The notes: generated by a model from the sequence alone, not told the origin. A stretch of 64,000 bases of DNA from an uncultured Bacteroidota bacterium (GCA_902800395.1 CADCEC010000009.1:10488-74487); one strand, 5' to 3'; positions 8,027-54,364 are shown, counted from the stretch's first letter. Program-made: numbers and translations.

Positions 8027-9526
8027 ATCACCGATCTCTATCCTGAACTCGGCCACATCATCGGCACGGAAGCCGACCGCATGGGTATCGACGCCTATTT
8101 CGTGGGCGGCGTTGTGCGCGACCATTTCCTCCAGCGCCCCTGCACCGATATCGACATCGTCTGCGTAAACAGAGCGGAAAGTGGAAAGTGGCACCCCGAA
8201 GGGGAACTGAACACCATGGAAAAGAAAAACAATGTAGTGAAGAAAGTGGAAAGCGGAGAAGTAAGCATCGGTATCGAACTGGCCCATGCCGCTGCTAAAG
8301 CCCTTGGCGGCAGCAAAGTCTCCGTCTTCAAAAACTTCGGCACCGCCTCCTTCCGTCATAACGACCTCGAGCTCGAATTCGTAGGAGCACGAAAAGAAAG
8401 CTACTCCCACAACTCCCGCAAGCCCATCGTAGAGAACGGCACCCTAGAGGATGACCAGCGGCGACGTGACTTCACCGTCAACGCGCTGGCAGTGTGTCTA
8501 AATGAGGAGCACTTCGGCGAACTCATGGACCCTTTCGGCGGCATCCAGGACCTCAACGCCGGTATCCTTCGCACACCCCTCGACCCCGACATCACCTTCA
8601 GCGACGACCCACTTCGCATGATGCGTGCCATCCGCTTCGCCTCGCAGCTGGGATTCCGCATCGCCGACGACACCTTCGAGGCTATCACCCGCAACGCCAA
8701 ACGTATCGAGATAGTCTCCATGGAACGAATCGCCGTGGAGCTCAACAAAATCATGCTCTCCCCCACTCCTTCCCTCGGCCTCAAACTCATGCAGAAATGT
8801 GGCCTCATGCAGCTTATCCTCCCCGAAATCTCCGCCCTCGCCGGAGTAGAAACCGTTGACGGACGAGGCCACAAAGACATCTTCTATCACACCATGCAAG
8901 TGCTTGACAACGTAGCCGCCTTTAGCGGCAACGTGTGGCTCCGTTGGGCCGCCCTACTGCACGATGTCGGCAAGCCTGGCGTGAAGCGCTACGACCCCAA
9001 GCAGGGCTGGACATTCCATGGCCACGAGGCCCGCGGTGCCCACATGGTGAAGCGTATCTTCAAGCGCCTGCGCCTGCCGTTGGGCGAAGAGATGCGCTAC
9101 GTCGAGAAACTCGTCATGCTCCACATGCGCCCCATCATCCTCGCCGAGGATGTCGTCACCGACAGCGCCGTGCGCCGCCTCCTCTTCGAGGCTGGCGACG
9201 ACATCGACGACCTCATGCTACTCTGCAACGCCGACATCACCACCCGCAACGAAGAGAAGCAGCGTCGCCATCGCGCCAACTTCGAGTTGGTGAAGCGCAA
9301 ACTCGTCGAACTCGAAGAGCGCGACCGCATCCGCAACTTCCAGCCTCCCGTCTCAGGACAGGACATCATGGACACTTTCGGCATCGGCCCTTGCCGCGAA
9401 ATAGGCACCATCAAGGACGCCATCAAGGACGCCATCCTCGATGGCCAAATCCCCAACGACCGTGCCGCTGCCTGGCAAATGATGCTCGACATCGCCGCCA
9501 CACTAGGTCTAAAAACCAAAGAATGA
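8024..9526 (+). CDS. CCA tRNA nucleotidyltransferase / poly(A) polymerase family protein with HD domain
   Basis: YFVGGVVRD...DIDIV nucleotidyltransferase head, RRDFTVNALA, and HD region LLHDVGKP. The only plausible start is TTG at 8024, because a TAA lies at 8009 in the same frame. Confidence 0.85.
   Translation: MITDLYPELGHIIGTEADRMGIDAYFVGGVVRDHFLQRPCTDIDIVCVNRAESGKWHPEGELNTMEKKNNVVKKVESGEVSIGIELAHAAAKALGGSKVSVFKNFGTASFRHNDLELEFVGARKESYSHNSRKPIVENGTLEDDQRRRDFTVNALAVCLNEEHFGELMDPFGGIQDLNAGILRTPLDPDITFSDDPLRMMRAIRFASQLGFRIADDTFEAITRNAKRIEIVSMERIAVELNKIMLSPTPSLGLKLMQKCGLMQLILPEISALAGVETVDGRGHKDIFYHTMQVLDNVAAFSGNVWLRWAALLHDVGKPGVKRYDPKQGWTFHGHEARGAHMVKRIFKRLRLPLGEEMRYVEKLVMLHMRPIILAEDVVTDSAVRRLLFEAGDDIDDLMLLCNADITTRNEEKQRRHRANFELVKRKLVELEERDRIRNFQPPVSGQDIMDTFGIGPCREIGTIKDAIKDAILDGQIPNDRAAAWQMMLDIAATLGLKTKE
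8174..8262 (+). repeat. Composite insert in the CCA enzyme gene, bounded by two (GGAAAGT)n copies
   Basis: gcggaaagtggaaagtgg (8174-8191) and gtgaagaaagtggaaagcggagaagt (8237-8262) flank 45 nt that contain a ccccgaagggg hairpin. Confidence 0.7.
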
Positions 9527-9557
9527 AAAAACTTTTGGCCATATCAATATTATTTCG

Positions 9558-9565
9558 TAATTTTG
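9558..9565 (+). promoter_or_regulatory. -7 promoter box TAATTTTG (crt-hbd)
   Basis: TAnnTTTG upstream of the ATG at 9618. Confidence 0.5.
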
Positions 9566-9570
9566 CAGTC

Positions 9571-9612
9571 TCAACTCAATCAATAAAGCATTCAAACAAT
9601 CAAGCAATAAAC
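9571..9612. repeat. Degenerate CAATCAAGCAATAA-type repeat upstream of crt
   Basis: tcaactcaatcaataaagcattcaaacaatcaagcaataaac. It shares aatcaagcaataa with the asd insert. Confidence 0.6.
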
Positions 9613-9617
9613 AGACT

Positions 9618-10394
9618 ATGTACGAACACCTGAAAATAGAAGAGCACGGCAACATCGCCATTTTAACCATCTCTGCGCCGAAGAGCCTCAATGCGCTCAA
9701 CACCACCATCCTCAACGAGATAGACGAGTATCTCGACGAATTCGAGGGTGGCAACTACCGCTGCCTCATCATCACCGGCGACGGCGAGAAGAGCTTCGTG
9801 GCAGGTGCCGACATCAGCGAGATGGCCACCCTCGGTCCACAGCAAGGAGAGACCTTCGGCCATAAAGGCGCCGAGGTGTTCCGCCGCATCGAGACCCTCC
9901 CCTGCCCCGTCATCGCTGCCGTCAACGGCTTCGCCCTCGGCGGCGGCTGCGAGCTCGCCATGGCCTGCGATATCCGCCTCTGCTCCGACAACGCCCGTTT
10001 CGGACAACCCGAAGTAGGCCTCGGCATCATCCCCGGCTTCAGCGGCACCGTGCGTCTGGCACGCCTCGTGGGCATGGGTATGGCCAAGCAACTCATCTAC
10101 ACCGGCAAGCCCATCAAGGCCGACGAAGCCCTCCGCATCGGCCTCGTCAATGAAGTGCTTCCCCAAGCCGAGTTGATGAACCGCGCCCTCGAACTGGCCG
10201 GCCAGATTGCCGCCAACGCCCCTCTGGCTGTCAGTGCCGCCAAACTCTGCATCAACACCGAGTTCGACATGGAAGCCGAGGATGCCATCGCCTTCGAAAA
10301 CCGAGCCTTCGGCCTCTGCTTCAACACCGAGGACCAGAAGAACGGCATGAAAGCCTTCCTCGAGAAAGGTAAATGTGAATTCCAAGGAAAGTAA
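9618..10394 (+). CDS. crt: Enoyl-CoA hydratase (crotonase family)
   Basis: Crotonase fold motifs FVAGADI and [21 protein letters not shown]. Adjacent to hbd. Confidence 0.85.
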
Positions 10395-10422
10395 TCGTTT
10401 AACAATTAAAATAATAATCATC

Positions 10423-11259
10423 ATGAAAATCTGTGTTATTGGAACCGGCACCATGGCCAAAGGTATTGTCAAAGCCTTCGCCGCCCAGATGCCCGTCGTC
10501 ATGAAAAGCCGCACTCAGGCCAGCCTCGACAAGGCCATGGCCTCCATCGCCAAAGGCTACGGTAAACTCGTTGAGAAAGGCAAGATGACCCAGGATCAGG
10601 TCGACGCCCTCCTCAAGAACATTGCCACCACCACCGACTACGCCACCTTCGCCGATGCCGACCTCGTCATCGAGGCTGCCGTCGAGGAAATGCAGCTTAA
10701 GAAGGATGTCTTCACCGAGCTCGACGGTATCTGCAAGCCCGAGACCATCTTCGCCACCAACAGCAGCTCGCTGAGTATCACCGAGATTGCTGCCTGCACC
10801 AAGCGTCCCGCCCAGTTCATCGGCATGCACTTCTTCAACCCCGCCGACCGCATGGCTCTCGTCGAAGTCATCCGCGGCCAGCTCACCAGCGACGCCGTCT
10901 GCAAGTGCGTCGTCGACTTGGCCACCCAGATTGGCAAACAGCCCGTCGAGGTGAAGGAAGCTCCCGGCTTCGTGGTGAACCGCATCCTCATCCCCATGAT
11001 TAACGAGGCTGTAGGCATTCTCGCCGACGGTATCGCCACCGCCGAAGACATCGATAAGTGCATGATGCTCGGCGCCAACCATCCCATGGGTCCTCTGGCC
11101 TTGGCCGACCTCATCGGCAACGATGTCAACCTGGCCATCATGGAGGTGCTCTACAAAGAGTTTGGCGATCCCAAGTATCGTCCTCACCCCCTGCTCCGCA
11201 AGATGGTCCGTGCCGGCCTCCTCGGCCGCAAGACCGGCGAAGGATTCTACAAATACTAA
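10423..11259 (+). CDS. hbd: 3-hydroxybutyryl-CoA dehydrogenase
   Basis: [15 protein letters not shown] Rossmann motif and the [15 protein letters not shown] signature. I prefer the ATG at 10423 to the longer track ORF. Confidence 0.85.
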
Positions 11260-11286
11260 TAGACAAACTGTCAAGTATCTATAACA

Positions 11287-11316
11287 GAGGGGTCAAGGTG
11301 TACACCTTGACCCCTC
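11287..11316. terminator. Perfect 30-nt palindrome between convergent hbd and miaA
   Basis: GAGGGGTCAAGGTG-TA-CACCTTGACCCCTC. Confidence 0.6.
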
Positions 11317-11357
11317 CTTCATATCTCTTATTCCAAAAAGAGGAAACAAAGAGGGGG

Positions 11358-11388
11358 GTAAGAGGGGAGTAAGAGTTGAGTAAGAGTT
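11358..11388. repeat. (GTAAGAG)n-like repeat in the hbd/miaA convergent spacer
   Basis: gtaagaggggagtaagagttgagtaagagtt. Confidence 0.65.
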
Positions 11389-11456
11389 ATAGACTACTAA
11401 GTACTATAAATCAACTTCTTACAGATGTAAGAAAAACGGGAGTTTTCGAGGGAAAA

Positions 11457-12287
11457 TCAAAAATGATAACGGCGGCACCACGTCATTTGCTTACGTGCAT
11501 AGTGCCAGGTATTTAGCTTTATTTCCGCCACGGCATCGGCTAGATTGCGGGTGCCGTCAAGGACAGGGAACAGTTCCCGATAACCGACGGTGCGAAGGGT
11601 GGAAAGTTCGCGATATGGGAGGAGCGTTTGCACCTCGTCGAGGAGGCCATCGGCCACCATCCTTTCGACACGAAGGTCGATGCGATGACGGAGTTCGTCG
11701 TGAGGTATCTGGATGACACGTACCTCGATATCGAAGGGACGCTCGACGGGTTTGTTTTCTGCAATCACCTGACTATAAGGGCGACCGGTCATATAGCACA
11801 CTTCCAGGGCGCGCTGGAGTCGCACAGGGTTTCGGAGGTCGACCCGACGGTAGTAGTCGGGGTCAAGCATCTGAAGCTGAGCACGTTTCTCTTCGAGGGG
11901 CATCTGCTGGAGGCGCGCACGAAGCTCGGGCGTGGGGTCGGGCATGGAGGTAACTCCCTGACGCAGAGCGTCGACATAAAGGCCGCTGCCCCCAACGGCA
12001 ATTACGGTGTCTTGTCCTTTGGCGAAGATCCGATTGACAACCGCCATAGCGTCGCGCTCGTAGTCAGAAATATTATAGGGCTCTGTGACAGAGCGACAAG
12101 CGATGAAATGGTGCGTAGCGGCAGTAAGTTCCTCGTCGGAAGGTCGTGCCACCCCAATTCGCATCTCGCGATAGAACTGGCGGGAATCGCAAGAGAGAAT
12201 CTCCGTCCCCATTTCACGGGCCAGCCGGATTGCCTCGGCGGTCTTGCCGGAGGCAGTGGGGCCTGTGATGATCAGGAGTTTTTTCAT
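11457..12287 (-). CDS. miaA: tRNA dimethylallyltransferase
   Basis: P-loop ITGPTASGKT, SCDSRQFYREM.IGVARP, and NTWHYARKQMTW. Confidence 0.9.
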   Translation of the reverse strand: MKKLLIITGPTASGKTAEAIRLAREMGTEILSCDSRQFYREMRIGVARPSDEELTAATHHFIACRSVTEPYNISDYERDAMAVVNRIFAKGQDTVIAVGGSGLYVDALRQGVTSMPDPTPELRARLQQMPLEEKRAQLQMLDPDYYRRVDLRNPVRLQRALEVCYMTGRPYSQVIAENKPVERPFDIEVRVIQIPHDELRHRIDLRVERMVADGLLDEVQTLLPYRELSTLRTVGYRELFPVLDGTRNLADAVAEIKLNTWHYARKQMTWCRRYHF

Positions 12288-13552: not shown

Positions 13553-14756
13553 TGATATTATATTCCTTGAGTTTGCGATAGAGAGTGCGCTCGGAGATGT
13601 GGAGGTCGGCAGCAGCCTGCTTGCGGTTGCCCTGATTGTGCTCGAGGGCGCGGATAATGGCGCGACGCTCTCGGTCCTCAAGTCTCAGGGACTCCTCTTC
13701 GATAATTTCGGGGGTCATGAACTCCTCATCGTTTTGAGCGGATAGTGGGTAGTGGGTAGTAGGTAGTGGATAGTTTGAGTTATTGTTGGCGTTGTTGGTT
13801 GTGAGCTGTGAGACCATATGGCGGAGTTCGTTGATTTCGCCACGCATCTCGTTAATCATCTGTCCCATGGAGAGGGCTTTGAGGAGCAACTCTCGGTCGG
13901 TAATCTGGCTTGCGGCCACCGGAGCAGGACTCTCGGGAACAAGAGCGGGCATGCGCTCGGCAGGGATGTAGGCCAGATAGTTCTGCAGGATGTCGGGAGT
14001 GATGCTGCGGGCGGTCTCGACGACGGCAATCTGCTCGGTGATATTCTTGAGTTCGCGCACGTTTCCATACCAGGGATAATTCATCAGCATGGTACGGGCA
14101 TCCTCGGTGAGGACGATGGGCGGCATGTGGTATTTCTCGGCCACATCGGAGGAGAACTTGCGGAACAGCAGCGGGATGTCCTCCTTGCGCTCACGCAGAG
14201 GTGGGATATAGATGGAGAGTTGGTTGAGACGGTAGTAGAGGTCTTCGCGGAAGCGTCCTTCACGCACGGCTCGGACGATATCTACATTGGTAGCGGCGAC
14301 GACACGCACGTCTATCTTCTGCGGCGTGGAGGAGCCTACAGGAATTATCTCGCCGTTCTCGAGGACGCGTAGGAGCTTGACCTGCATAGCAAGAGGCAAC
14401 TCGCCAATCTCGTCGAGGAAGATGGTGCCGCCATCGGCCTCCTCAAAGTAGCCCTTGCGGGAGCGGTCGGCACCGGTGAAGGCACCCTTGACGTGACCGA
14501 AGAGCTCACTCTCGATGGTGCCCTCGGGGATGGCACCACAGTTAACGGAGATAAGGCCACGACCCTGTCGGACATGCTTGCGAGTGCTGTTCTCATGGAT
14601 GATGCGTGAGAAGACGTCCTTGCCCACGCCGCTCTCGCCGGTGATGAGGATGGAGAGGTCGGTGGGTGCCACCTGGATGGCCTTGTTGAGAGCCATGAGG
14701 AGTTTGGGATCGTTGCCGATGATGTCGTATCGTTGTTTGAGGGTTTGGATGTCCAT
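13542..14756 (-). CDS. Sigma-54-dependent transcriptional activator (AAA+ and Fis-type HTH, no receiver domain)
   Basis: Walker A GESGVGKD, GAFTGA loop, ESELFGH, and a C-terminal HTH (NQGNRKQAAADLHISERTLYRKL). Confidence 0.85.
   Translation of the reverse strand: MDIQTLKQRYDIIGNDPKLLMALNKAIQVAPTDLSILITGESGVGKDVFSRIIHENSTRKHVRQGRGLISVNCGAIPEGTIESELFGHVKGAFTGADRSRKGYFEEADGGTIFLDEIGELPLAMQVKLLRVLENGEIIPVGSSTPQKIDVRVVAATNVDIVRAVREGRFREDLYYRLNQLSIYIPPLRERKEDIPLLFRKFSSDVAEKYHMPPIVLTEDARTMLMNYPWYGNVRELKNITEQIAVVETARSITPDILQNYLAYIPAERMPALVPESPAPVAASQITDRELLLKALSMGQMINEMRGEINELRHMVSQLTTNNANNNSNYPLPTTHYPLSAQNDEEFMTPEIIEEESLRLEDRERRAIIRALEHNQGNRKQAAADLHISERTLYRKLKEYNINED
13740..13774. repeat. (GTGGGTA/GTAGGTA)n heptamer repeat, in frame in the sigma-54 activator linker (NYPLPTTHYPLS)
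   Basis: ggatagtgggtagtgggtagtaggtagtggatagt. TAG recurs every 7 nt on the plus strand, and the sense strand is stop-free. Confidence 0.8.
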
Positions 14757-14762: not shown

Positions 14763-16760
14763 CTAATTGATTACTCGGTGAAGGGCCAAGCCGATTTGGC
14801 GACGGAGGTCGACAAGGTGTTTCTTTTCGGCGAGGAGTTGGTCGATATCCTCGTTACTCTTGACCTCGCGGAAGCGACGGGCGTTGTCGGCGATGCGGTT
14901 GTCGACACATTTCATCTTGAAGGTCAGAAGGGTTTCAGTGAGGTCCTCCTGCAGATGGTCCTCGAGAGAGGGAACGAAGACCTGCTTCTGGCGCCAGGTG
15001 TCGCTGATGCGGTAGGTGTCGAGCATCAGGGAGATGGCGAAAGAGCGAAGGGCGTCGTCATCGTCGGTGATAAAACGTGAGGCATCGGGCTCTTCGCCAC
15101 GGGCGAGGGTGTCGCAATAGTAAAGATAGATACGCTGACATAGAGGATCGGAGAAAGAGAGGTCGTCGGCCTGGAGGTCGTTGACGACCAGTTCGGCAAG
15201 GGAGTAGGCGGCAAGTTGAGAGCCACCGTCGTCGGAAGGAACCTGAAGTTCGATGGAATTATGACCGTAATTGAGGAGGAGTTGGATGAGGTGGCGCTCG
15301 GAAGGGTCGATTGGAAGGTCGGAGGTCGGAGGTCGGAGGTCAGAGGTCGGAGTACTCTGAGTATTCGGAGTGCTCTGAGTACTCTGATCATTCTGATTAC
15401 TCTGATTATTCTGAGAGATTTGATTCAGGCGGTTCTGGTTGATGGCCTTGGAGAGTTCCGAGGCGAGGGCCTCTTCGGAAACGTCGAGGAGGTGGGCACA
15501 CTGGGCGATGTACTCTGTGCGTTCGATGAGGTCGGGCACCAGGGCGATGGTTGCCACGGTGTCCTTGACGAGCTCAGCCTTGCGGATGGGGTCGTTCTTG
15601 ACACCGTCGAGAAGCACACGGGTCTTGAAGATAAGGAAGTTGTCCTCATGGGTAGCGAGATACTCCTGCAGGGCTGTGGAGCCGTATTTCTGAGCGTAAC
15701 TGTCGGGGTCCTCGCCGTCGGGGAAGAGGACACAGCGGACGTGCATTCCCTCGGCAAAAAGGAGGTTGACGGCACGGAGAGCCGCCTTGATGCCGGCGGA
15801 GTCGCCGTCGTAAAGAACGGTGACGTTAGGGGTATAGCGCTTGATAAGGCGTATCTGTTCGGTAGTGAGGGAAGTGCCACAGGAGGCCACTGTGTTCTCC
15901 ACGCCCGACTGGTGCATGGAGATGACATCGACGTTGCCTTCGACGAGGTAGCACTTGTCGGCCTTGGAGATGGCGGAACGCGCCTGGAAGAGGCCGTAGA
16001 GGATGCGCGACTTGTTGTAGATATCAGAGTCGGGGGAGTTGACATATTTGGCAGCCTGCTTCTCGGAACTGAGGACACGGCCGGAGAAGCCGAGGACACG
16101 GCCCGAGATGCTATAGATAGGGAACATCACACGTCCACGGAAGCGGTCGTAGGCTCGTTTCTTATCTCCTGTCTCCTTGTCTCCTGACTCCTTGAAAATA
16201 GTCAGGCCTGTTTTTTCGAGGACGATGTCGCTGTAGCCGTTCTTTCGGGCGTGGTCGGTGAAGTTGGTCCACTCGTCGAGGCAGTAGCCGAGGCCGAAGC
16301 GCTTGATTATCTCATCGCTGAGGCCGCGGCCATGGAAATAGCTGAGGCCCACGGCACGCCCCATCTCATCGTTGTAGAGGAGGTCGGCGAAATACTGCTG
16401 GGCGAATTCGGAGAGGTGGAAGAGGGCATCGCGCTCGTTCTGTCGTTCTTTCTGTTCCTCGGTCTGTTCCTCCTCCTGGATCTCGATATTGTATTTCCGT
16501 GCCAGCCAGCGGAGGGCTTCGGGATAGGTGAAGTGTTCGTGTTTCTTAAGGAAGGAGACCACGTCGCCAGCCTCGCCGCAGCCGAAGCATTTGAAGATGC
16601 CTTTGGAGGGGGAGACATAGAAGGAGGGCGTCTTCTCGTTGTGGAAGGGGCAACAGCCTATGTGGTTGGCTCCGCGCTTCTTGAGCGAAACAAAGTCACC
16701 TATCACCTCCTCGATGCGGGCGGCGTCCATGATCCGTTGTATGGTCTCTTGGTCTATCAT
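14763..16760 (-). CDS. dnaG: DNA primase
   Basis: Zinc ribbon CCPFHNEKTPSF...CFGCG and TOPRIM region YLVEGNVDVISM...LYDGDSAG. I prefer the ATG at 16760 because the track start at 16775 overlaps the -7 promoter box. Confidence 0.9.
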   Translation of the reverse strand: MIDQETIQRIMDAARIEEVIGDFVSLKKRGANHIGCCPFHNEKTPSFYVSPSKGIFKCFGCGEAGDVVSFLKKHEHFTYPEALRWLARKYNIEIQEEEQTEEQKERQNERDALFHLSEFAQQYFADLLYNDEMGRAVGLSYFHGRGLSDEIIKRFGLGYCLDEWTNFTDHARKNGYSDIVLEKTGLTIFKESGDKETGDKKRAYDRFRGRVMFPIYSISGRVLGFSGRVLSSEKQAAKYVNSPDSDIYNKSRILYGLFQARSAISKADKCYLVEGNVDVISMHQSGVENTVASCGTSLTTEQIRLIKRYTPNVTVLYDGDSAGIKAALRAVNLLFAEGMHVRCVLFPDGEDPDSYAQKYGSTALQEYLATHEDNFLIFKTRVLLDGVKNDPIRKAELVKDTVATIALVPDLIERTEYIAQCAHLLDVSEEALASELSKAINQNRLNQISQNNQSNQNDQSTQSTPNTQSTPTSDLRPPTSDLPIDPSERHLIQLLLNYGHNSIELQVPSDDGGSQLAAYSLAELVVNDLQADDLSFSDPLCQRIYLYYCDTLARGEEPDASRFITDDDDALRSFAISLMLDTYRISDTWRQKQVFVPSLEDHLQEDLTETLLTFKMKCVDNRIADNARRFREVKSNEDIDQLLAEKKHLVDLRRQIGLALHRVIN
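15313..15430. repeat. (GGAGGTC)5 followed by about eight 9-nt (ACTCTGAGT/ATTCTGATT) units, in frame in the dnaG linker
   Basis: ggaaggtcggaggtcggaggtcggaggtcagaggtcgg, then agtactctgagtattcggagtgctctgagtactctgatcattctgattactctgattattctgagagatttgattcagg. Confidence 0.85.
16163..16193. repeat. (TCTCCTG)n-like repeat, in frame in dnaG (SGDKETGDKK)
   Basis: tatctcctgtctccttgtctcctgactcctt. Confidence 0.6.
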
Positions 16761-24374: not shown

Positions 24375-24409
24375 TAATTTGGAATTAGAAATTAGGAATT
24401 AGGAATTGG
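24375..24409. repeat. (TTAGGAA/TTAGAAA)n heptamer repeat across the rnfB stop and up to the rnfC start region
   Basis: taatttggaattagaaattaggaattaggaattgg. Confidence 0.85.
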
Positions 24410-26357: not shown

Positions 26358-26395
26358 TTCCGAAATTAAGAATTAGTAATTAAGAATTAAGAATC
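26355..26395. repeat. (TTAAGAA)n heptamer repeat from the usp stop to the SPOR gene ATG
   Basis: taattccgaaattaagaattagtaattaagaattaagaatc. Confidence 0.85.
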
Positions 26396-26845
26396 ATGAA
26401 GACACTTCGTGCTGCAATATTTTTAATTTTTAATTTTTCATTCTTTATAGCCCCTGTTTTCTCTCAAGGCAGCCGTTTCTCCGTTACCGGCGACGTGGCT
26501 GTCAACGCCATGGTGGAGCGACATGTGGAATTCAACAACAGGGTAAAGACCATCCCGGGATTCCGCGTACAGATAGCCTCTTTCTCGGGAGCCAACTCGA
26601 AGAACAGCGCTTTCAGCCTGCGCGACCGCTTCGTCATCGACTACCCTGCCGTACAGGCATATATCGTCTTCGATGAGCCCAACTTCAAGGTAAAAGTCGG
26701 TGACTTCCGCACCCGCCTCGAGGCTTATGCTTTCCTACAGCAAATCAAAGAGGTATACAAAGGCTACATCATCAAAGACAATATCAATCCCGAACCGCCC
26801 ACAGTCGAGGACTACGCTCCGGACGATTTAGAAGAGGAATTCTAG
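26396..26845 (+). CDS. SPOR domain-containing protein
   Basis: Signal/anchor sequence, then GFRVQIASFSG...FKVKVGDFRTRLEAYAF, which is typical of SPOR. Confidence 0.7.
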   Translation: MKTLRAAIFLIFNFSFFIAPVFSQGSRFSVTGDVAVNAMVERHVEFNNRVKTIPGFRVQIASFSGANSKNSAFSLRDRFVIDYPAVQAYIVFDEPNFKVKVGDFRTRLEAYAFLQQIKEVYKGYIIKDNINPEPPTVEDYAPDDLEEEF

Positions 26846-27933
26846 ACAAACAAAGCTGCGGCCATGCCGTCGGCATGAAGTAAACCCTCGGGGGTAGGAA
26901 CAAAACAGTTGTCTTTCAAGACAATCCAGTCCAAATCAACATAAGGTTGCATCCCACAATGCAGCCTTTCTTTATACTTTTTAGGCACCTGTGCAAGTGC
27001 CAGGCCACGGGTGGTACGGAGGGCTGTCATTAGAAGTTCGTTGTAAGCATCGGCCTCAGTGAGGATCTCCTGCTCGAAGGTGCCGTCGGGCTTGTTCCAA
27101 CGTCGCTTTTCGACATGGGCGACCGAAGTGGAGCCACCGTCGAAGAGAGAAAAGCTGTGTGCACCAGGACCCAGGCCGAGGTAGGGGGTGCGGTCCCAGT
27201 AGCGACTATTGTGCTTCGACTCAAAGCCGGGACGGGCGTAGTTGCTGACCTCGTACTGTCGGAATCCGGCCTTCAGAAGTTGTTGACGCAGAGCATGGTA
27301 TTGTTGTATCACTTCCTCCTCGTCAGGCAGCACTACCCTACCCTGCTCCACCTGTACGGCCAGTGCGGTGCCAGGTTCCACGGTGAGGGCATAGGCGGAG
27401 ACATGGGAAACCAATTGAAAATTGAAAGCTGAAAATTGAAAAGTTTCTGGCAGACCATAGATAAAGTCGACGCTGAGATTGCTAAATCCTAAAGCATGAG
27501 CATTCTCCACAGCAGCAAGGGCCTGGTTTGCGGTATGGCGGCGACCGATGAGGCGAAGCATCGCGTCGTCAAGACTCTGGATGCCGATACTCAGACGGTC
27601 TACAAAACCCAAGTCACTGAGTCCCTGCAGGTAACCAACAGTCAAGTCTTCAGGATTTGCTTCGAGGGTCACCTCTTCGACCTGCGAGAGGTCGAAGCAC
27701 TCATGCAACGCCTTGACAATGCGCTCCAGCTCGCCAAGAGGCAGAATCGACGGGGTACCACCTCCGAAGTAGATAGTGCGAATAGGATGATTTTGCTCGT
27801 GACAACGCAGACGAATCTCCTCGATAAGGGCGTCGACGTAGCTTTCCACTTTCCACTTTCCACTTTCCACCTTGGAAAAGAAAGCACAGTAGGTACACTT
27901 GCGATGACAGAAAGGAACGTGAATGTAGATCAC
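26842..27933 (-). CDS. hemW: Radical SAM heme chaperone HemW (HemN-like)
   Basis: IYIHVPFCHRKCTYCAF radical SAM motif, FGGGTPS, and a HemN C-terminal domain. GTG start. Contains two repeat-derived inserts. Confidence 0.85.
   Translation of the reverse strand: MIYIHVPFCHRKCTYCAFFSKVESGKWKVESYVDALIEEIRLRCHEQNHPIRTIYFGGGTPSILPLGELERIVKALHECFDLSQVEEVTLEANPEDLTVGYLQGLSDLGFVDRLSIGIQSLDDAMLRLIGRRHTANQALAAVENAHALGFSNLSVDFIYGLPETFQFSAFNFQLVSHVSAYALTVEPGTALAVQVEQGRVVLPDEEEVIQQYHALRQQLLKAGFRQYEVSNYARPGFESKHNSRYWDRTPYLGLGPGAHSFSLFDGGSTSVAHVEKRRWNKPDGTFEQEILTEADAYNELLMTALRTTRGLALAQVPKKYKERLHCGMQPYVDLDWIVLKDNCFVPTPEGLLHADGMAAALFV
27411..27442. repeat. (ATTGAAA)n heptamer repeat, in frame in hemW (FQFSAFNFQL)
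   Basis: caattgaaaattgaaagctgaaaattgaaaag. Confidence 0.8.
27842..27871 (-). repeat. (GGAAAGT)4 repeat, in frame in hemW (VESGKWKVES)
   Basis: The plus strand reads ctttccactttccactttccactttccacc. Confidence 0.9.
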
Positions 27934-27972
27934 CTCTTAGCTCTTAGTTCTTAGTTCTTAGTTCTCTAAGAG
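27934..27972. repeat. (CTTAGTT)n, the reverse complement of (TAAGAAC)n, from the hemW start to the meaB C-terminus
   Basis: ctcttagctcttagttcttagttcttagttctctaagag. Confidence 0.85.
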
Positions 27973-36983: not shown

Positions 36984-38090
36984 ATGAACATACGAAAATC
37001 CACTCCTGACGACATCCACCTCATCCTGAACATGTACGACCACTCGCGTAGCGTAATGCGGGCCGACGGCAACATGACCCAGTGGGTGGGTTACCCTCTG
37101 CGCGAGGACGTGGAAGAGGATATTAAGAGAGGGGTATCATATATAGTGGAAAGTGGAAAGTGGAAAGTGGAAAGTACAGGTACCTTCGCTTTAGTGCCTG
37201 GAGAGGAACCCACCTACAACTATATCGACCATGGGCGCTGGATTGACGAGCAGACCCCCTACTCTACCCTGCACCGCATGGCGGCTCTATCCGGCACCCA
37301 CGGCATCGCCGACATCGCCTTCCGCTATGTCAAAGAGCAAGCCTCCCACCTGCGTGTAGACACCCACCATGACAACCGTCCCATGCGTCATATCCTCGAG
37401 AAGGAAGGCTTCGTCTACTGCGGCATCATCTACATGCCCGACGGTGCCCCGCGCGACGCCTATGAGTGGTGGCGCTACGACTGCGTGCCCGCCGACCTCA
37501 AGGAATATGTGGAGACCGTCATCCTCCCACAGCACGAGCACTACGATGCCGCCCACCGACCCGACCATATCCGTCGCGTGATTGCCCGAAGCATGATGCT
37601 TCAGCCGTCGGCTGTCACCTATATTGCCGCCGCCATGCATGATATTGGCATCTGCGAAGGACGTGAAGTGCACCACCTGGCCTCGGGCCGCATCATCCGC
37701 GCCGACCAACACCTGCGCCGTTGGTTCAACGAAGAGGAAATAGAACTTATCGCCCAGGCCGCTGAAGACCATCGCGCTTCCGCCACCACCAAGCCGCGCT
37801 CCCTACTGGGATGCATCCTCTCCGAGGCCGACCGCGACATCGAGCCCGAAACCATCGTGCGCCGCACCGTGGAGTACGGCTTCAGCCACTACCCCACTCT
37901 CGACCGCGAAGGACATTGGCAGCGCACCCTCGAACACCTACATGAGAAATACGCCGAAGGCGGCTACCTGAAGCTCTGGATGGACGACAGCCCCAATGCC
38001 GCCCCACTGGCCGACCTCCGCGAACTCATTCACAACGAGAGACGCCTGCGTTCCCTCTTCGACAACCTCTTCGACACAATAAGTCATTAA
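36984..38090 (+). CDS. Fusion protein with an N-terminal GNAT acetyltransferase and a C-terminal HD-domain phosphohydrolase
   Basis: GNAT half (HRMAALSGTHGIA...DNRPMRHILEKEGF). HD half (AAMHDIGI, AEDHRAS, SEADRD). Carries one (GGAAAGT)n insert. Confidence 0.7.
   Translation: MNIRKSTPDDIHLILNMYDHSRSVMRADGNMTQWVGYPLREDVEEDIKRGVSYIVESGKWKVESTGTFALVPGEEPTYNYIDHGRWIDEQTPYSTLHRMAALSGTHGIADIAFRYVKEQASHLRVDTHHDNRPMRHILEKEGFVYCGIIYMPDGAPRDAYEWWRYDCVPADLKEYVETVILPQHEHYDAAHRPDHIRRVIARSMMLQPSAVTYIAAAMHDIGICEGREVHHLASGRIIRADQHLRRWFNEEEIELIAQAAEDHRASATTKPRSLLGCILSEADRDIEPETIVRRTVEYGFSHYPTLDREGHWQRTLEHLHEKYAEGGYLKLWMDDSPNAAPLADLRELIHNERRLRSLFDNLFDTISH
37146..37175 (+). repeat. (GGAAAGT)4 repeat, in frame in the GNAT-HD gene (VESGKWKVES)
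   Basis: gtggaaagtggaaagtggaaagtggaaagt. Confidence 0.9.
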
Positions 38091-39860: not shown

Positions 39861-40421
39861 CTATTCCACCCCTTCAAGGCTCATCAACGAGTGAACGGGG
39901 GCGATGTCCTCGAGAATCTTGCGTCCGCCCAAGACTGGCAGTTCCACCAGGAAGATAAACTCTTTAATGCGTATCCTCTTGCCGTCGATAACCTGCTGCT
40001 GCAATGAATCGACGATACCCTTCACCGTGCCACCCGTGGCCAGCAAGTCGTCGAAAAGGGTAATGTCGATATATTCACTGCTGCAGCACGCCGCGAAATC
40101 ACTACGCCTATAGAACAACTCGTCACTGCCATACTCTTTCATGATTTCCACCTTTACCAGGTCTCCCTCGGCATGCGGCAGTTTACCCTTCTTACGGAAA
40201 GGAACGATGTTCTTCACGTGGTCGCTCACCGATAGTAACGGTGCGGCGAAGAGGAAACCTCGGGCCTCGACGGTGGCCACATTGGGAGCCGTCGTCAGTC
40301 GGTCGATTTCCCTGACTGCCTGTTGGAAAGCCTCCTTATCCTGCAAGAAAGGCAGCACATCAATGAAATCGATTCCCGGTTTTGGGAAGCCCAAATAGTG
40401 TTTAATGACGTTTTCGAACAT
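39861..40421 (-). CDS. apt: Adenine phosphoribosyltransferase-like
   Basis: FPKPGIDFIDVLPFL, EARGFLFAAPL, and the PRPP motif LFDDLLATGGT. Confidence 0.8.
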   Translation of the reverse strand: MFENVIKHYLGFPKPGIDFIDVLPFLQDKEAFQQAVREIDRLTTAPNVATVEARGFLFAAPLLSVSDHVKNIVPFRKKGKLPHAEGDLVKVEIMKEYGSDELFYRRSDFAACCSSEYIDITLFDDLLATGGTVKGIVDSLQQQVIDGKRIRIKEFIFLVELPVLGGRKILEDIAPVHSLMSLEGVE

Positions 40422-40451
40422 AACTCTTAATTCTTAACTCTTAATTCTTTA
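40421..40451. repeat. (TAACTCT/TAATTCT)n heptamer repeat between the apt start and the atoE stop
   Basis: taactcttaattcttaactcttaattcttta. Confidence 0.85.
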
Positions 40452-43624: not shown

Positions 43625-44313
43625 TTTTCTACCTTTTTGACAATCAATATGCTGAGTTCCCAAAGGAGGTAAATCGGGATGGAGACGAGGGTGAGGGTGA
43701 AGGGGTCACCTGTGGGAGTGATAATGGCACCGACAATAAGGATAACGACGATGACGTGGCGACGGTATTTCCGCATGAAGGCGCTCTTGAGAATACCGAA
43801 TTTTCCTAACAACCAACAAAGTACAGGAAGTTCAAAGACGGCGCCCATCACCAGTGTCATAGTGACCAGCAACCCTATGTAGGAGGAAAGAGAAATTTGG
43901 TTAGGGACTTCCGGGGAAACCTGATAGGTACCGAGAAACTGGACAGTGAAAGGAAAGATAATGAAATAGTTGAGCAACACTCCTGCTAGGAAGAGTAGGT
44001 ATCCCCCACCGGCAGCGCGGATGGCCATGCGGCGTTCAAGTTCATAAAGTCCCGGAGCAACAAAGGCGAAGAGCTGGTAGATGAGATAGGGCGAGACGAC
44101 AATGATACCCATCCATAGGGCCACGCGCATGTGGGTAAAGAACTGCTGCGTGATTTCGATATTGATAAGCGAGATATTGTCGCCCTTGGGGGCGAGGATA
44201 ATGGCGAAGAGGGGCTCCTTGAAGCAGAAACAGGTCACCGCAGCGATAAGCGCGGCGACCAGCATGCGCCACAGCCGTGAGCGCAACTCGTCGAGATGCT
44301 CCCAGAAGGTCAT
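43621..44313 (-). CDS. tatC: Twin-arginine translocase subunit TatC
   Basis: MTFWEHLDELRSRL and a six-TM profile. Confidence 0.9.
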   Translation of the reverse strand: MTFWEHLDELRSRLWRMLVAALIAAVTCFCFKEPLFAIILAPKGDNISLINIEITQQFFTHMRVALWMGIIVVSPYLIYQLFAFVAPGLYELERRMAIRAAGGGYLLFLAGVLLNYFIIFPFTVQFLGTYQVSPEVPNQISLSSYIGLLVTMTLVMGAVFELPVLCWLLGKFGILKSAFMRKYRRHVIVVILIVGAIITPTGDPFTLTLVSIPIYLLWELSILIVKKVEK

Positions 44314-44317
44314 ACAA

Positions 44318-44400
44318 GTGGAAAACGGAAAGTGGAAAGTGGAAAGTTATTTGGCGTCAGCATCGTTTTCCACTTTACTCTTTCCACTTTCATCTTCCAC
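44318..44400. repeat. Inverted pair of (GGAAAGT)n blocks bracketing the tatA stop codon
   Basis: gtggaaaacggaaagtggaaagtggaaagt (44318-44347) versus ttttccactttactctttccactttcatcttccac (44366-44400). Confidence 0.85.
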
Positions 44401-44541
44401 ACCGTTCATTCCGTCCTTGAAGCTCTTGACGCCTTTGCCCACGCCGTGCATGAGTTCAGGGATTTTCTTGCCGCCGAAGAGCAGCAGGACGACAAGGACG
44501 ATGACGATAATTTCCCAGGTTCCTAACATTAACAGTTTCAT
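44347..44541 (-). CDS. tatA: Twin-arginine translocase subunit TatA/E
   Basis: TM helix followed by [19 protein letters not shown]. The C-terminal tail is repeat-derived. Confidence 0.9.
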
Positions 44542-46015: not shown

Positions 46016-46021
46016 CTACAG

Positions 46022-48370: not shown

Positions 48371-48382
48371 GGATTTAATGGG

Positions 48383-49189: not shown

Positions 49190-49220
49190 ACGGCCAGTAA
49201 ACAGGGTCCGATTCATGCGG

Positions 49221-49228
49221 CAAAAGTA
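49221..49228 (-). promoter_or_regulatory. -7 promoter box TACTTTTG (LuxR regulator)
   Basis: Reverse complement of CAAAAGTA. Divergent from the GH3 promoter. Confidence 0.45.
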
Positions 49229-49258
49229 CGAAAAAAAAACGATATAATATATTTTTTG

Positions 49259-49266
49259 TATATTTG
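49259..49266 (+). promoter_or_regulatory. -7 promoter box TATATTTG (GH3)
   Basis: TAnnTTTG ends only 4 nt before the ATG at 49271. Confidence 0.4.
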
Positions 49267-49270
49267 CATT

Positions 49271-51337: not shown

Positions 51338-51357
51338 TCACGCCAAGATAGTCTGCC

Positions 51358-52578
51358 ATGAAACGAATCCTCTCTTTTGCTTTGATTTTGCTGCCACTTA
51401 CTGTCGTAGGACAAAGACTCTCCGAAGAGCAAAGCAAGCATCGCATAGAACAGCTACAGCATCTCATGCAGCATTACCAGCCTCATTTAGCATGCGATTT
51501 TGAGTATTATCCCGACTGCGGCTTTGTCGTCTTCACCGACAGCACCGACTGGCAGGGTATTGTGGCTCTCGACGGCACAATACTGTTGCCTGCTAAATAT
51601 ATTGTCTATAGGCAGATTATCGAAGAACACCCCTCGCCTTATTTTCTAGTCCTAAGCGAAGACAAGATGGGCATCATAGACAAGGAAATGCGGTGGGTGC
51701 TGCCTATGGAATGTGACTACGACGGATCCTGCTTGAGGGGGTGTTACATGCCTAATATGCATCACTGGCTTGAGGAAGGACATTCATGTTTGGCGAAATT
51801 CAAGCCTGAAAAGTCGCATGCTGAAGGGAGTCCCAAAACGACTACGCCAAAGACTCCGCGACTGGCGATAAACGGTCCATATGAGAGCCTCGACACACTT
51901 TTCGATGGCCTTTTCCTCTTCTATACCGACAACCCCGGCGACCGGGGCGACTATATCTTCGGCTATGTGGACATCTATGGAAACACCACCGCCACCCCTA
52001 CTCAGTTGGCCACAATGGAGAAGTGGATGAGTGGTGTGATTGACTATGATGTGAAACCTATACAAATTACCAGTATTGTCCCCTGTAAAGAAGCAGAGAA
52101 CGATTATGCCACTGTTCTCTCCTGTCTGAGCGACACGCATTCGGTGGGCTATTTGCTGGTTCCAAACGGGGATTCTATATCGATGGCAAGATTCAACCGT
52201 TGTGTCTCGGAGGACTTATGGGGAAAGGCGGTAGGTATCAGTCACAAGAGATTCGACGCTGGCTTGTCCGATGTTCGGCAGGCGGAGATGCTTCTGGCCG
52301 AACTCATGAAAGACGACGTACTTCCCCGCTTTGGACGGCGCCGTCGCTACATTGGCAACACAAGTAACTATACGAAATATAAACGTGTTTATGGATTCTA
52401 CTACAACGAGGATGGCGAGCGGTGTGTCTATATCGAGATGAATCTTAGAGAATTCCATGATTACCGTATAGGATTCAGGCAGATGTGGGACGCCTGCGAC
52501 GCGGTGGCGTATATCAACCTCAACCTCGAGTCCCGCAAGGTGATAAGGGCTTACGGTAGCTCATGTCAATCGTATTAA
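51358..52578 (+). CDS. WG-repeat (KWG) containing secreted protein
   Basis: Signal peptide. Repeated segments of the type WQGIVALDGTILLPAKY and MGIIDKEMRWVLPMECDY. Confidence 0.55.
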   Translation: MKRILSFALILLPLTVVGQRLSEEQSKHRIEQLQHLMQHYQPHLACDFEYYPDCGFVVFTDSTDWQGIVALDGTILLPAKYIVYRQIIEEHPSPYFLVLSEDKMGIIDKEMRWVLPMECDYDGSCLRGCYMPNMHHWLEEGHSCLAKFKPEKSHAEGSPKTTTPKTPRLAINGPYESLDTLFDGLFLFYTDNPGDRGDYIFGYVDIYGNTTATPTQLATMEKWMSGVIDYDVKPIQITSIVPCKEAENDYATVLSCLSDTHSVGYLLVPNGDSISMARFNRCVSEDLWGKAVGISHKRFDAGLSDVRQAEMLLAELMKDDVLPRFGRRRRYIGNTSNYTKYKRVYGFYYNEDGERCVYIEMNLREFHDYRIGFRQMWDACDAVAYINLNLESRKVIRAYGSSCQSY

Positions 52579-52588
52579 ATTTACAACC

Positions 52589-53875
52589 ATGAAGAAAATA
52601 TTTTTAACTTTTACTTTTATTTCCACCTTTGCCTTCTGCCACGCTCAGCACGACAGCATTGCCGAAAGCGACACGGCCATTCTGCAGCGTATCGACGAGT
52701 GGCAGGATTTGAAGTTCGGATTTATGATGCATTGGGGCATCTACGCCCAATGGGGCGTGGTGGAGAGCTGGAGTATCTGCAACGAGTCGTGGATTACTCG
52801 TGAGATGCTGGATGAGAACGGTCGTCCCATCAAGGGCACCAAGGGGGAGGATTTCTACAAATACAAGCAGGCTTACCAAGCGCTGAACAAAACCTTCAAC
52901 CCCAAGCATTTCGCCCCCAAGCAGTGGGCGACAGCGGCCAAAGGCGCCGGCATGAAATACGTCGTCTTCACCACCAAGCATCATGACGGTTTCTGCATGT
53001 TCGACACACGCTATACCGACTACAGCAGCATGGGGTCTGAATGCCCGGCACAGACCGACTTCACACGCGGCGTGGTCGACGCTTTCCTCTCCCAGGGCTT
53101 CTGGACGGGTCTCTACTTCTCCAAACCCGACTGGCACAACGACGACTATTGGGCCCACGAATGGGCCACACCCGACCGCAACGTGAACTACTCCATCGCC
53201 GACCACCCCGACCGCTGGCAACGCTACAAAGACTTCACCTACAACCAAATCCACGAGCTAACACACAACTACGGCAAGATAGACATCCTCTGGCTCGACG
53301 GCGGCTGGGTGCGCCCCGAGTGGAGCGTCAACGACGAGACACGTCCTTGGCTCGGATGCAGCGGTCAGGTGCAGGATGTTGATATGGAGCGCATCGCCAC
53401 GATGGCCCGCGAACAAAACCCGCAGATGATCATCGTCGACCGCAGCGTCGGCGGCCGCTACGAGAACTACCGCACCCCCGAGAAGCAGGTGCCCGACACC
53501 CTCCTCCCCTACCCCTGGGAGACCTGCATGACCATGGGCGACAGCTGGAGCTACGTGCCCAACGACAACTACAAAAGCGTCAAGACCCTCATCCACATGC
53601 TCTGCGATGTGGTAGCCAAGGGCGGCAACCTGCTGCTCAACGTGGGTCCCGACGCCGACGGCAACCTGCCCGTCGAAGCGCTCCAACGCATGGAGGAAAT
53701 AGGCAAATGGTTGGATAAGAACGGCTACTCCATCTACGGCACCCGCCCGCTCTTCCCCTACTGTAAGGGCAACGTCCGCTACACGCAGAGCAAAGACGGC
53801 AAGCATCAGTATGCAATTACGCTGACAGAGGAAGCCCCCTACGCCACGGTTAAGGAACTAAGAACTAAGAACTAA
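52589..53875 (+). CDS. Alpha-L-fucosidase (GH29)
   Basis: FGFMMHWG, KHHDGFCMFDT, and WLDGGW. The last 7 codons are read from a (TAAGAAC)n repeat. Confidence 0.85.
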   Translation: MKKIFLTFTFISTFAFCHAQHDSIAESDTAILQRIDEWQDLKFGFMMHWGIYAQWGVVESWSICNESWITREMLDENGRPIKGTKGEDFYKYKQAYQALNKTFNPKHFAPKQWATAAKGAGMKYVVFTTKHHDGFCMFDTRYTDYSSMGSECPAQTDFTRGVVDAFLSQGFWTGLYFSKPDWHNDDYWAHEWATPDRNVNYSIADHPDRWQRYKDFTYNQIHELTHNYGKIDILWLDGGWVRPEWSVNDETRPWLGCSGQVQDVDMERIATMAREQNPQMIIVDRSVGGRYENYRTPEKQVPDTLLPYPWETCMTMGDSWSYVPNDNYKSVKTLIHMLCDVVAKGGNLLLNVGPDADGNLPVEALQRMEEIGKWLDKNGYSIYGTRPLFPYCKGNVRYTQSKDGKHQYAITLTEEAPYATVKELRTKN

Positions 53876-53893
53876 GAAGTAAGAACTAAGAAT
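53851..53893. repeat. (TAAGAAC)6 heptamer repeat from the GH29 C-terminus to the GAF gene ATG
   Basis: taaggaactaagaactaagaactaagaagtaagaactaagaat. Confidence 0.9.
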
Positions 53894-54364
53894 ATGACGA
53901 AAGAAGATAAATATGCCGCCCTGCTGCCGCAGGTGAAAGCCCTCTGCGAGGGAGAAGAGGATATCATCGCCAAGATGGCCAACGTCAGCGCCCTGCTGCA
54001 CCAGGAATTTGCCTTCTGGTGGACTGGATTTTACCGCGTCGTGGGCAACGAGCTGCTACTTGGGCCTTTTCAAGGTCCCATTGCCTGCGTGCATATCGCC
54101 TATGGGCGAGGCGTCTGCGGCACAGCGTGGAAAGAGCATCGCACCGTGGTGGTGCCCGACGTGGAGGAATTTCCCGGACATATCGCCTGCAGCAGCGAGA
54201 GTCGCAGCGAGATTGTAGTGCCCGTGTTTAAAGTGGAAAGTGGAAAGCGGAAAGTGGAAAACAAGGAGGTCATTGCCGTCCTGGACATCGATAGCCGCGA
54301 ACTAGCCACTTTCGACGACATCGACGCCCGATGGCTCGAGCAAATCGTCAAACACATCCCCTGA
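53894..54364 (+). CDS. GAF domain protein (free methionine-R-sulfoxide reductase-like)
   Basis: WTGFYRV...LLGPFQGPIAC..I.YGRGVCG and SEIVVP...VLDIDS. Carries one (GGAAAGT)n insert. Confidence 0.8.
   Translation: MTKEDKYAALLPQVKALCEGEEDIIAKMANVSALLHQEFAFWWTGFYRVVGNELLLGPFQGPIACVHIAYGRGVCGTAWKEHRTVVVPDVEEFPGHIACSSESRSEIVVPVFKVESGKRKVENKEVIAVLDIDSRELATFDDIDARWLEQIVKHIP
54230..54262 (+). repeat. (GGAAAGT)4 repeat, in frame in the GAF gene (KVESGKRKVEN)
   Basis: aaagtggaaagtggaaagcggaaagtggaaaac. Confidence 0.9.

Follow-up and report, generated by a model that had tools for sequence, protein, structure and literature searches.

In many prokaryotes, heptanucleotides have been reported to be the most abundant class of long simple repeats (Mrazek 2007, cited from the summary in PMC4679880). 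The GGGAATC repeats of Xanthomonas and the GGGGAYT repeats of Nostoc show a preference for four units and lie between open reading frames (ORFs) that are aligned, near start or stop codons, 7-32% of them being intragenic (Rehm et al. 2015, PMC4692102), and the TAACTGA repeats of Beggiatoaceae, cyanobacteria and five Bacteroidetes are located just upstream of start codons, have no evident mechanism of spread and were proposed to be bound by S1, CSP or CsrA (MacGregor 2015, PMC4679880). Here we describe arrays of this kind, with GGAAAGT as the unit of principal interest, in a 64,000-nt stretch of DNA from an uncultured Bacteroidota bacterium (GCA_902800395.1 CADCEC010000009.1:10488-74487; the window, in whose numbering positions are given). 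The related loci that were compared with the window are mostly metagenomic and carry L-numbers (e.g. L118, L236).

The arrays resemble the described heptamer families in several respects: they consist of tandem 7-nt units, around four per array, with one or a few units dominating a genome; they are dispersed over the chromosome, and ten of those in the window lie between co-directional ORFs beside start or stop codons; they are present in some relatives and absent from others; and their origin and spread are likewise unexplained. On the other hand, the GGAAAGT unit and its herbivore-gut Bacteroidales hosts are new, and the G-quadruplex rationale for having four units is inapplicable to GGAAAGT. 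The case fits the known kind and adds to it a recurrence of in-frame copies within signal peptides and the loops of enzymes, loops that are occupied by different arrays in different lineages, probable copy-paste that can be traced through shared imperfections, and an old in-gene array that is maintained at the nucleotide level. In the papers on these families, coding copies are treated as rare or under-represented, and the encoded peptides were not analysed by Rehm et al. (2015, PMC4692102), where 'amino acid' appears nowhere in the text.

In-frame colonisation of housekeeping genes is known from the Rickettsia palindromic elements (summarised in PMC10969869). As with these, one repeat is found here in frame in unrelated housekeeping genes, the peptide is added at positions that suit fold and function, and non-coding copies exist as well; outside the hosts of the window, in-frame GGAAAGT elements were detected in AnmK, PrmC, CobW, MiaB, POR, RibD and others, and the PrmC of a close relative carries a coding palindrome made of an inverted pair of arrays. 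However, the Rickettsia elements are palindromes of ~100-150 bp that belong to about ten sequence families in an obligate intracellular alphaproteobacterium, whereas the present ones are 25-35-nt heptamer arrays, mostly single-armed and of many unit families, in free-living gut Bacteroidales. [quoted passage not shown] Unlike MITEs, the arrays had no terminal (inverted) repeats or target-site duplications at any of the filled/empty pairs compared; unlike REP/REPIN, single-armed arrays predominate, and no mobile-element, transposase, reverse-transcriptase or RAYT/Y1-transposase gene was present among the window genes scanned against Pfam. Filamentous cyanobacteria reportedly harbour dispersed repeats of 21-27 nt, attributed to Elhai and colleagues in 2008, that are said to move, in coding and non-coding DNA, apparently without flanks or a recognisable transposase. 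Those are reported to be unique short sequences with internal dyad symmetry, unlike tandem heptamers. Our literature search returned no relevant account of a GGAAAGT repeat in this sense, and the literature found contained no recurrent in-frame colonisation of housekeeping enzymes by heptamer arrays and no nucleotide-level maintenance of an array.

A first-pass annotation of the window, made from the sequence alone, had proposed that near-identical GGAAAGT blocks place the same peptide in frame into five unrelated conserved proteins, and that a further, non-coding copy lies in the tatA/tatC spacer. All of these blocks were found, none displaced by more than 2-3 nt, the spacer copy was present, and translation reproduced the peptides, which appear as NRAESGKW ... 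KKVESGE in the CCA tRNA nucleotidyltransferase, as IVESGKWKVEST in a GNAT-HD fusion and as FKVESGKRKVENK in a GAF protein; the other two hosts are HemW and TatA. The identities of the hosts were supported by their domains: PolyA_pol head, RNA-binding and HD domains in the CCA enzyme; radical-SAM and HemN_C domains in HemW, with TIGR00539 above its cut-off; an HD domain and an N-terminal GNAT domain matching PDB 2pc1 in the fusion; and the expected matches in TatA and TatC. The GAF host is closest to the free Met-R-sulfoxide reductases (fRMsr), e.g. 3mmh.

The blocks are tandem arrays and belong to a larger population with the same period. A search of the window with (GGAAAGT)2, allowing ≤2 mismatches, gave 17 overlapping matches compared with 0.41 expected from dinucleotide-preserving shuffles, and Tandem Repeats Finder (TRF) reported GGAAAGT arrays of period 7 at 8176-8191, 27842-27870, 37145-37175, 44316-44347, 44367-44400 and 54230-54260, with head-to-tail 7-nt units at every site (84-100% matches). 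These blocks account for only about one third of the heptamer arrays in the window. A self-match scan revealed 17 period-7 arrays, whereas each of the other periods between 4 and 12 gave 0-2 and shuffled sequence gave none, the further units being GAACTAA, TAACTMT, AATTSAR, TTTTTCA, AGGTCGG, TAGTGGG and ATTCTCA. The same excess was observed in the clade sample, which comprises the window plus 1.05 Mb of related loci: 104 period-7 arrays were counted versus 3-35 for other periods, with a median length of 29.5 nt (interquartile range 25-33 nt), that is, 4-5 units. CAATTTT (10 arrays) and GGAAAGT (9 arrays) were the commonest units in this sample, followed by a long tail, and 39 of 90 arrays were classed as coding by an ORF heuristic that misfiled at least one spacer array. 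A sequencing or assembly artefact was ruled out, since different studies, with assemblies made independently, yielded the same in-frame arrays.

The properties of the unit account for the peptide. None of the six frames of GGAAAGT contains a stop and, 7 and 3 being coprime, any frame of one orientation yields an identical cyclic heptapeptide, GKWKVES in the sense and TFHFPLS in the antisense direction. Units of the GAACTAA type contain stops in both orientations and were found outside genes only. That GGAAAGT is open in six frames and one of the two commonest units of the clade would explain why it is the unit seen in enzymes; it occupies at least eight independent coding sites in the clade, among thousands of possible stop-free units. 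The entity that the hosts share is a DNA cassette, and not the peptide emphasised by the first-pass annotation; the same process also gives other units, non-coding copies and signal-peptide cores. That interpretation was partly right, in that the blocks are in frame, in loops and mostly lineage-specific, but it missed their DNA-level nature and was mistaken about HemW.

Comparison with orthologs showed that the in-gene arrays of four hosts are insertions that relatives at 80-96% identity lack, as had been predicted. In the CCA enzyme the loop is, depending on the lineage, empty, occupied by one GGAAAGT array, or occupied by other heptamer-derived peptides (PLPTTHY, SDLRPPT). The array-free loop reads VCIGHDEGGEVH, in proteins of 475-476 aa, and relatives at 84-96% identity contain a single uninterrupted array, NRAESGKWKVESGEV, which adds 21 nt. 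The two pieces present in the window, previously listed as separate blocks, belong to a single array that an exact insertion of 51 nt has split. This insertion is confined to the window and to CCA proteins 98-100% identical to that of the window, relatives at 96% being without it, and it was rejected as a repeated element because no second copy occurs in any sequence examined. Since the AlphaFold model of this enzyme is poor (mean pLDDT 46.5), the location of the array was taken from a PDB sequence alignment, in which residues 50-82 of the query stand opposite roughly a single residue of 4wby, at a place flanked by the DIDIV strand (catalytic DxD) and the next helix. As a separate observation, L237, whose CCA protein has 86% identity, carries at 1805-2112 a GNAT gene beside recG with several AATGATG/TCATCAC-type heptamer arrays, and its product is 24 residues longer than the window ortholog.

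In the GNAT-HD protein the insert lies within a hairpin, according to the alignment to 2pc1, and is missing (−30 nt) from four relatives at 80-83% identity. One relative retains a decayed copy, VEGGKFQVES, a different insert occupies this site in two, and one carries VESGKWEVEN elsewhere, in the inter-domain linker. The insert of the GAF protein adds 7-9 residues to a turn of two or three residues between two strands, as judged from alignment to 3mmh and 3ksf. It is missing from relatives with 81% and 67% identity, and in two others the same hairpin contains (CAATCAA)4.5. The reverse situation was found in AnmK, where L094 and L117 carry the array KRKVESGKWKVGE (+24 nt) and the window does not. 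Over all sites the net change in length was 0, +21, +24, +27 or +30 nt, and the array itself always measured ~28-33 nt. The blocks thus sit in loops or tails: these hairpins, a site in the head domain of the CCA enzyme, the tail of TatA and a predicted, low-confidence coil of HemW.

Some arrays that lie far apart share their irregularities. The arrays at 4050-4074 and 63392-63416 agree at 24/25 nt, both reading GAGGTAA GAACCAA GAAMTAA GAGG, with three variant units in the same order; 53862-53892 matches the reverse complement of 63479-63509 at 31/31 nt, including one GAAGTAA variant unit; 55064-55096 and 62174-62206 agree at 31/33 nt and have a common 14-nt super-period; and the arrays of the tatA tail and the GAF gene agree at 25/27 nt, with the variant middle unit at the same position and the same terminal GGAAAAC. 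In all four pairs the similarity ends at the borders of the array. Because independent slippage would not reproduce an irregular order of units, these pairs suggest that preformed cassettes were copied between sites. Slippage appears to act as well, given the 14-nt super-periods and the orthologous spacers with different, internally homogeneous units.

The HemW block had also been regarded as a lineage-specific insertion, but this did not hold. It does follow the radical-SAM Cys motif; however, the loop after CxxxCxxC is no longer than that of E. coli HemN (1olt) or of close orthologs that lack the motif, all being equal in length, so there is no net insertion. Among 119 HemW orthologs (≥64% identity), 45 are within two mismatches of KVESGKWKVES (12 exact, 33 with 1-2 mismatches), and the remaining ones grade continuously into unrelated loops of equal length. 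Five lineages with 67-80% protein identity share the array DNA GTGGAAAGTGGAAAGTGGAAAGTGGAAAG[T/C] while the flanking codons vary freely, the single further change, in one of the five, being GTG to GTA. Seven of the nine degenerate codons of the array are identical in these lineages, compared with 20% of the other codons for conserved amino acids (binomial P 3e-4; P 8e-5 when four lineages are used), and synonymous divergence around the array is saturated. Codon preference was ruled out as the cause, since this genome uses GAA, AGT and GGA as minor codons only. The conservation is at the nucleotide and not the amino-acid level. In three other lineages the array has decayed through both synonymous and non-synonymous changes. 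In the predicted structure of HemW (mean pLDDT 84.8, pTM 0.84), the array occupies a low-confidence coil just before helix 29-42, and a second, degenerate array of the same gene is also modelled as coil; the orthologs of L116 and L117 have TTTCAAC/TTCAATT arrays at this second site. Separately, a distant HemW homolog (41% identity) of a Prevotella sp. metagenome-assembled genome (L107, 4184-4214) was seen to carry a GGAAAGT array, RKVESGKWKE, at a different position, ~residue 200.

Outside genes, ten arrays each take up exactly the spacer from stop to start codon in a pair of co-directional genes (4053-4088, 5079-5104, 24376-24407, 26364-26394, 27935-27965, 40421-40449, 44316-44347, 53855-53892, 55063-55096 and 63475-63509). 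Most of the units in these spacers contain TAA or TAG and provide stops in all three frames, and several arrays end with a purine-rich AAGAAG/AAGAGG just before the start codon. The spacer between tatA and tatC is one of them: with the tatA stop codon at 44347-44349 and the tatC start codon ending at 44313, its 33 nt are almost wholly array. Together with the array of the TatA tail it forms an inverted pair (44305-44412, − strand RNA) that is predicted to fold into a hairpin of −34.5 kcal/mol (z = −4.1), spanning the end of tatA, the stop codon and the spacer and reaching within a few nucleotides of the tatC start. A role of this predicted structure in translational coupling is possible. The tat loci of relatives were retrieved with the aldo-keto-reductase gene as query. 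L118, whose neighbouring aldo-keto-reductase protein is 96% identical to that of the window, is without both arrays and has an overlapping stop/start; in other lineages the two genes overlap or are separated by a ~30-nt spacer of TTTTCAA, CTTTCAY or ATTTCNA units.

Across all loci examined, GGAAAGT inverted pairs were a minority of the arrays (10 distinct cases), and they showed a 9:1 bias for the purine-rich arm being 5' of the pyrimidine-rich arm. For a single array no structure is predicted: when G-quadruplexes were permitted in the folding, (GGAAAGU)4.4 gave a minimum free energy of −0.1 kcal/mol and no quadruplex, whereas the control (GGGAAUC)4 folded into one at −8.4 kcal/mol. A scan of the window with Rfam at gathering thresholds returned one tRNA only and no known RNA family at the arrays. 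T-rich heptamer arrays also encode the hydrophobic cores of three signal peptides, those of the SPOR-domain, DUF5686 and outer-membrane beta-barrel proteins; the SPOR orthologs in relatives have ordinary non-repeat signal peptides in four of five cases and an array-derived one in the fifth (L114).

From these results, we consider it probable, although by no means settled, that the GGAAAGT blocks belong to a dispersed, DNA-level family of heptanucleotide cassettes found throughout this herbivore-gut Bacteroidales lineage, spread by templated copying and filtered by selection. Cassettes of 4-5 units (~25-35 nt) would be copied from existing arrays into new sites, without flanks or target-site duplication, most likely by a templated patch process (template switching or ectopic gene conversion) for which short GA-rich microhomology would provide the seed, and local slippage would follow. 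Selection would then decide which copies persist. Arrays at operon junctions would stay as stop-to-start spacers, and an array within a gene would survive only if its unit is stop-free in the reading orientation, the net length is a multiple of three and the heptapeptide suits the site. The hydrophilic GKWKVES would be suitable for surface loops, hairpin turns, linkers and tails, and the F/L/I-rich readings of T-rich units for signal-peptide cores. The shared peptide would then be a by-product and not a functional module.

Several points weigh against this explanation. No mechanism for moving cassettes of 25-35 nt has been demonstrated, nor was any transfer from donor to recipient caught. In spite of its age, the hemW array is nucleotide-perfect in five lineages; a passive passenger should have decayed, so some nucleotide-level maintenance or selection is needed there. 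A function is hinted at by the intergenic arrays, which are placed strictly at start codons, and by the inverted pairs with their 9:1 bias. The orthologous tatA/tatC spacers, with their differing units and 14-nt super-periods, indicate that slippage in situ also shapes the arrays. Finally, viral contigs contain scrambled heptamers about as often as (GGAAAGT)3, so the cross-phylum copies do not reveal a single mobile family. A bolder form of the proposal, to which we assign only a small chance, is that an undescribed process in gut Bacteroidales, and perhaps in a wider range of organisms, writes cassettes of ~30 nt in either orientation without flanks or duplications, that the arrays are actively homogenised or selected as periodic nucleic-acid binding sites, that operon junctions, signal peptides and enzyme loops are all shaped by one system, and that the hemW array and the tat hairpin are functional outputs of it.

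The main rival is that the arrays are functional cis-elements on RNA or DNA, either periodic sites for an OB-fold/RRM protein (S1, cold-shock) or spacers for translational coupling, and that some in-gene copies, hemW above all, are kept for that reason. We regard this as unlikely; it and cassette copying are not mutually exclusive. It agrees with the nucleotide conservation of hemW in spite of its minor codons, with the ten gene-oriented arrays that fill spacers and place AAGAAG/AAGAGG before start codons, with the hairpin that reaches the tatC start region, with the uniform 4-5 units whatever their sequence, and with the predicted single-strandedness of (GGAAAGU)4, which would leave it accessible to a binding protein; similar proposals exist for the TAACTGA repeats (PMC4679880). 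However, most in-gene copies are absent from close relatives or replaced there by unrelated units, so that neither sequence nor presence is required; three lineages show free decay of the array in hemW; equivalent positions are filled by many different units; and no binding protein has been identified.

It is improbable that each array was born in place by replication slippage from a chance proto-repeat, with the recurrence of GGAAAGT reflecting only a selective preference for units that are hydrophilic and free of stops. In its favour, heptanucleotides are reported to be the commonest class of long simple repeats in many prokaryotes, for which slippage is usually invoked (Mrazek 2007, via the summary in PMC4679880), the tat spacers of orthologs are built from different units, in some cases with 14-nt super-periods, and the array-free CCA loop GAAGGGGGCGAGGTG resembles two units. 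The distribution beyond the clade bears on this as well. (GGAAAGT)3 was found in >113 stretches from species-representative genomes of many phyla, including many rumen Bacteroidales, but in viral contigs its 15 loci compare with 16 for a scrambled control and 3 for a second control. As the scrambled unit is equally frequent, one cross-phylum mobile family is not supported, and the cross-phylum occurrences point to a general tendency of bacteria towards heptamer arrays. On the other hand, birth in place does not account for the same irregular order of variant units at distant arrays (24/25, 31/31, 31/33 and 25/27 nt), nor for one unit at no fewer than eight independent coding sites in a clade, and net changes of 0, +21, +24, +27 and +30 nt with arrays of ~28-33 nt do not fit a stepwise in-frame expansion by 21 nt.

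The orientation of the coding copies is relevant to whether the peptide itself was selected. It had been claimed that only the sense reading is used, and indeed all five coding copies of the window read GKWKVES. When relatives are included (AnmK, the second GNAT-HD site, an 826-aa protein and PrmC), about nine sites are sense and one is antisense. The latter is found in the PrmC of L010 (CAMOOR010000074.1, 628-716), where an inverted pair in frame encodes VESGKWKVES...LSTFHFPFS and a TTCAATT-type array (NFNFQFSIFN) is also present; L010 is a close relative, L094 of the same assembly having ~93% DNA identity to the window. Moreover, TFHFPLS was detected in Pfam-verified RibD, QueA, KsgA, GT1 glycosyltransferase and DegT aminotransferase proteins of Bacteroidales and Patescibacteria, so the exclusive claim fails beyond the window. 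Because spurious long antisense ORFs cross a stop-free array, a heuristic count for other phyla (24 sense, 24 antisense) was set aside and only Pfam-checked cases were used. The orientation bias would be explained by a context-dependent hydropathy filter, which would favour hydrophilic readings in loops and hydrophobic ones in signal peptides. It is very improbable that the GKWKVES-type peptide is a selected functional module which several proteins have recruited, for instance as a tag for interaction, localisation or regulation: the same hydrophilic peptide does occur in sense in five hosts and is kept in many HemW orthologs, but it is absent from close orthologs of four hosts, the HemW conservation is at the nucleotide level and uses minor codons, the same DNA is found non-coding and antisense in real proteins, and other units give unrelated peptides in the same loops. 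Least credible of all is that the arrays are contingency loci in which gain or loss of one unit switches a gene off and on (phase variation), for although 7 is not a multiple of three, so that a one-unit change is a frameshift, and simple repeats near gene starts are classic sites of this process (as cited in PMC4692102), the hosts are housekeeping enzymes, orthologous in-gene arrays keep an identical in-frame length in all lineages examined, four units are short for frequent slippage, and there were no frameshifted alleles among the retrieved loci.

If the copying of cassettes is correct, abundant gut bacteria would continually remodel the surface loops, linkers, tails and signal peptides of their housekeeping proteins by pasted cassettes, and the shared imperfections would make the copying events traceable. 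This would offer a handle on why heptanucleotides dominate the long simple repeats of prokaryotes and on how genome-specific families spread, and the hemW and operon-junction arrays would be directly testable for function at the RNA level. The cassettes also create lineage-specific indels, by which the alignment of orthologs, the calling of gene starts and the annotation of domains may be misled in metagenome-assembled genomes, and they mark naturally permissive insertion sites in enzymes. The arrays of the window that were analysed individually are given in Table 1.

Table 1. Heptamer arrays and associated features, in window coordinates.
Feature	Position	Strand	Remark
Left half of CCA (GGAAAGT) array, AESGKW	8174..8191	+	Split array
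Unique 51-nt (17-aa) secondary insertion HPEGELNTMEKKNNVVK, with CCCCGAAGGGG palindrome	8192..8242	+	Exact insertion relative to L236
Right half of CCA array, KVESGE	8243..8262	+	Imperfect 3' units resemble ancestral GAAGGGGGCGAGGTG of array-free orthologs
Perfect (GGAAAGT)4.1 array, hemW codons 22-31, VESGKWKVES	27842..27870	-	Equal-length loop replaced
Second, degenerate hemW array (TTCAATT family; FQFSAFNFQ), ~residues 165-175	27413..27442	-	Tandem Repeats Finder
Perfect (GGAAAGT)4.4 array in GNAT-HD, VESGKWKVES	37145..37175	+	Net +30 nt vs L121, L122, L125, L130
Slightly degenerate (GGAAAGT)4.4 array in GAF/fRMsr, KVESGKRKVEN	54230..54262	+	Net +27 nt; beta-hairpin turn
tatA/tatC intercistronic spacer array (GGAAAGT), 3' arm of predicted hairpin	44314..44346	+	mRNA reads CUUUCCA, antisense to unit
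Degenerate (GGAAAGT) array, TatA C-terminal tail ESGKSKVEN, 5' arm of predicted hairpin	44367..44400	-	Tandem Repeats Finder
(GAACTAA)5.4 array, alpha-L-fucosidase stop to GAF start	53855..53892	+	Fills spacer
(GAACTAA) array, meaB stop to hemW start	27934..27965	-	In L117; absent in L114, L116
(GAACTAA) array between two co-directional genes	63475..63509	-	Sister of 53862-53892
Degenerate cassette GAGGTAA GAACCAA GAAATAA GAGG... before asd	4050..4088	+	Fills spacer
Degenerate cassette of asd leader, opposite orientation, signal-peptide core SLLVLGSYL, outer-membrane beta-barrel protein	63392..63416	-	
(TAACTAT/CATCTAT) array, 14-nt super-period, intercistronic spacer	55063..55096	.	
Sister of 55064-55096 array, downstream of outer-membrane protein (OMP) gene	62174..62207	.	
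(CCGACCT)5.3 in-frame array TSDLRPPTSDL, DnaG primase C-terminal linker	15316..15352	-	
(ACCCACT) in-frame array YPLPTTHYPL (cyclic HYPLPTT), sigma-54-dependent activator linker	13743..13774	-	
(ATTTTTA) array, SPOR-domain protein signal-peptide core IFLIFNFSF	26419..26447	+	
(TTTTTCA)4 array, hydrophobic N-terminal segment FSFFIFHFS, DUF5686/CarboxypepD_reg protein (signal-peptide core)	57631..57658	-	

Other repeats adjoin two of these arrays or lie in the same genes. In dnaG (15316-15415, − strand), a 9/27-nt repeat, (GAGTACTCT)7.3, adjoins the CCGACCT array and encodes a low-complexity stretch rich in Q, S, T and N. At 57694-57736 a 10/21-nt repeat with GGAGTGAAAG-like units on the − strand (TRF consensus CCTTTCACTC on the + strand) is situated at the extreme 5' end of the DUF5686 ORF, where it reads GVKGSEKGVKGSE and may be coding or leader. 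The base composition of the window was also seen to be linked to the strand: regions with + strand genes reach a GC skew of −0.28 and an AT skew of +0.18, the coding strand being rich in C and A.

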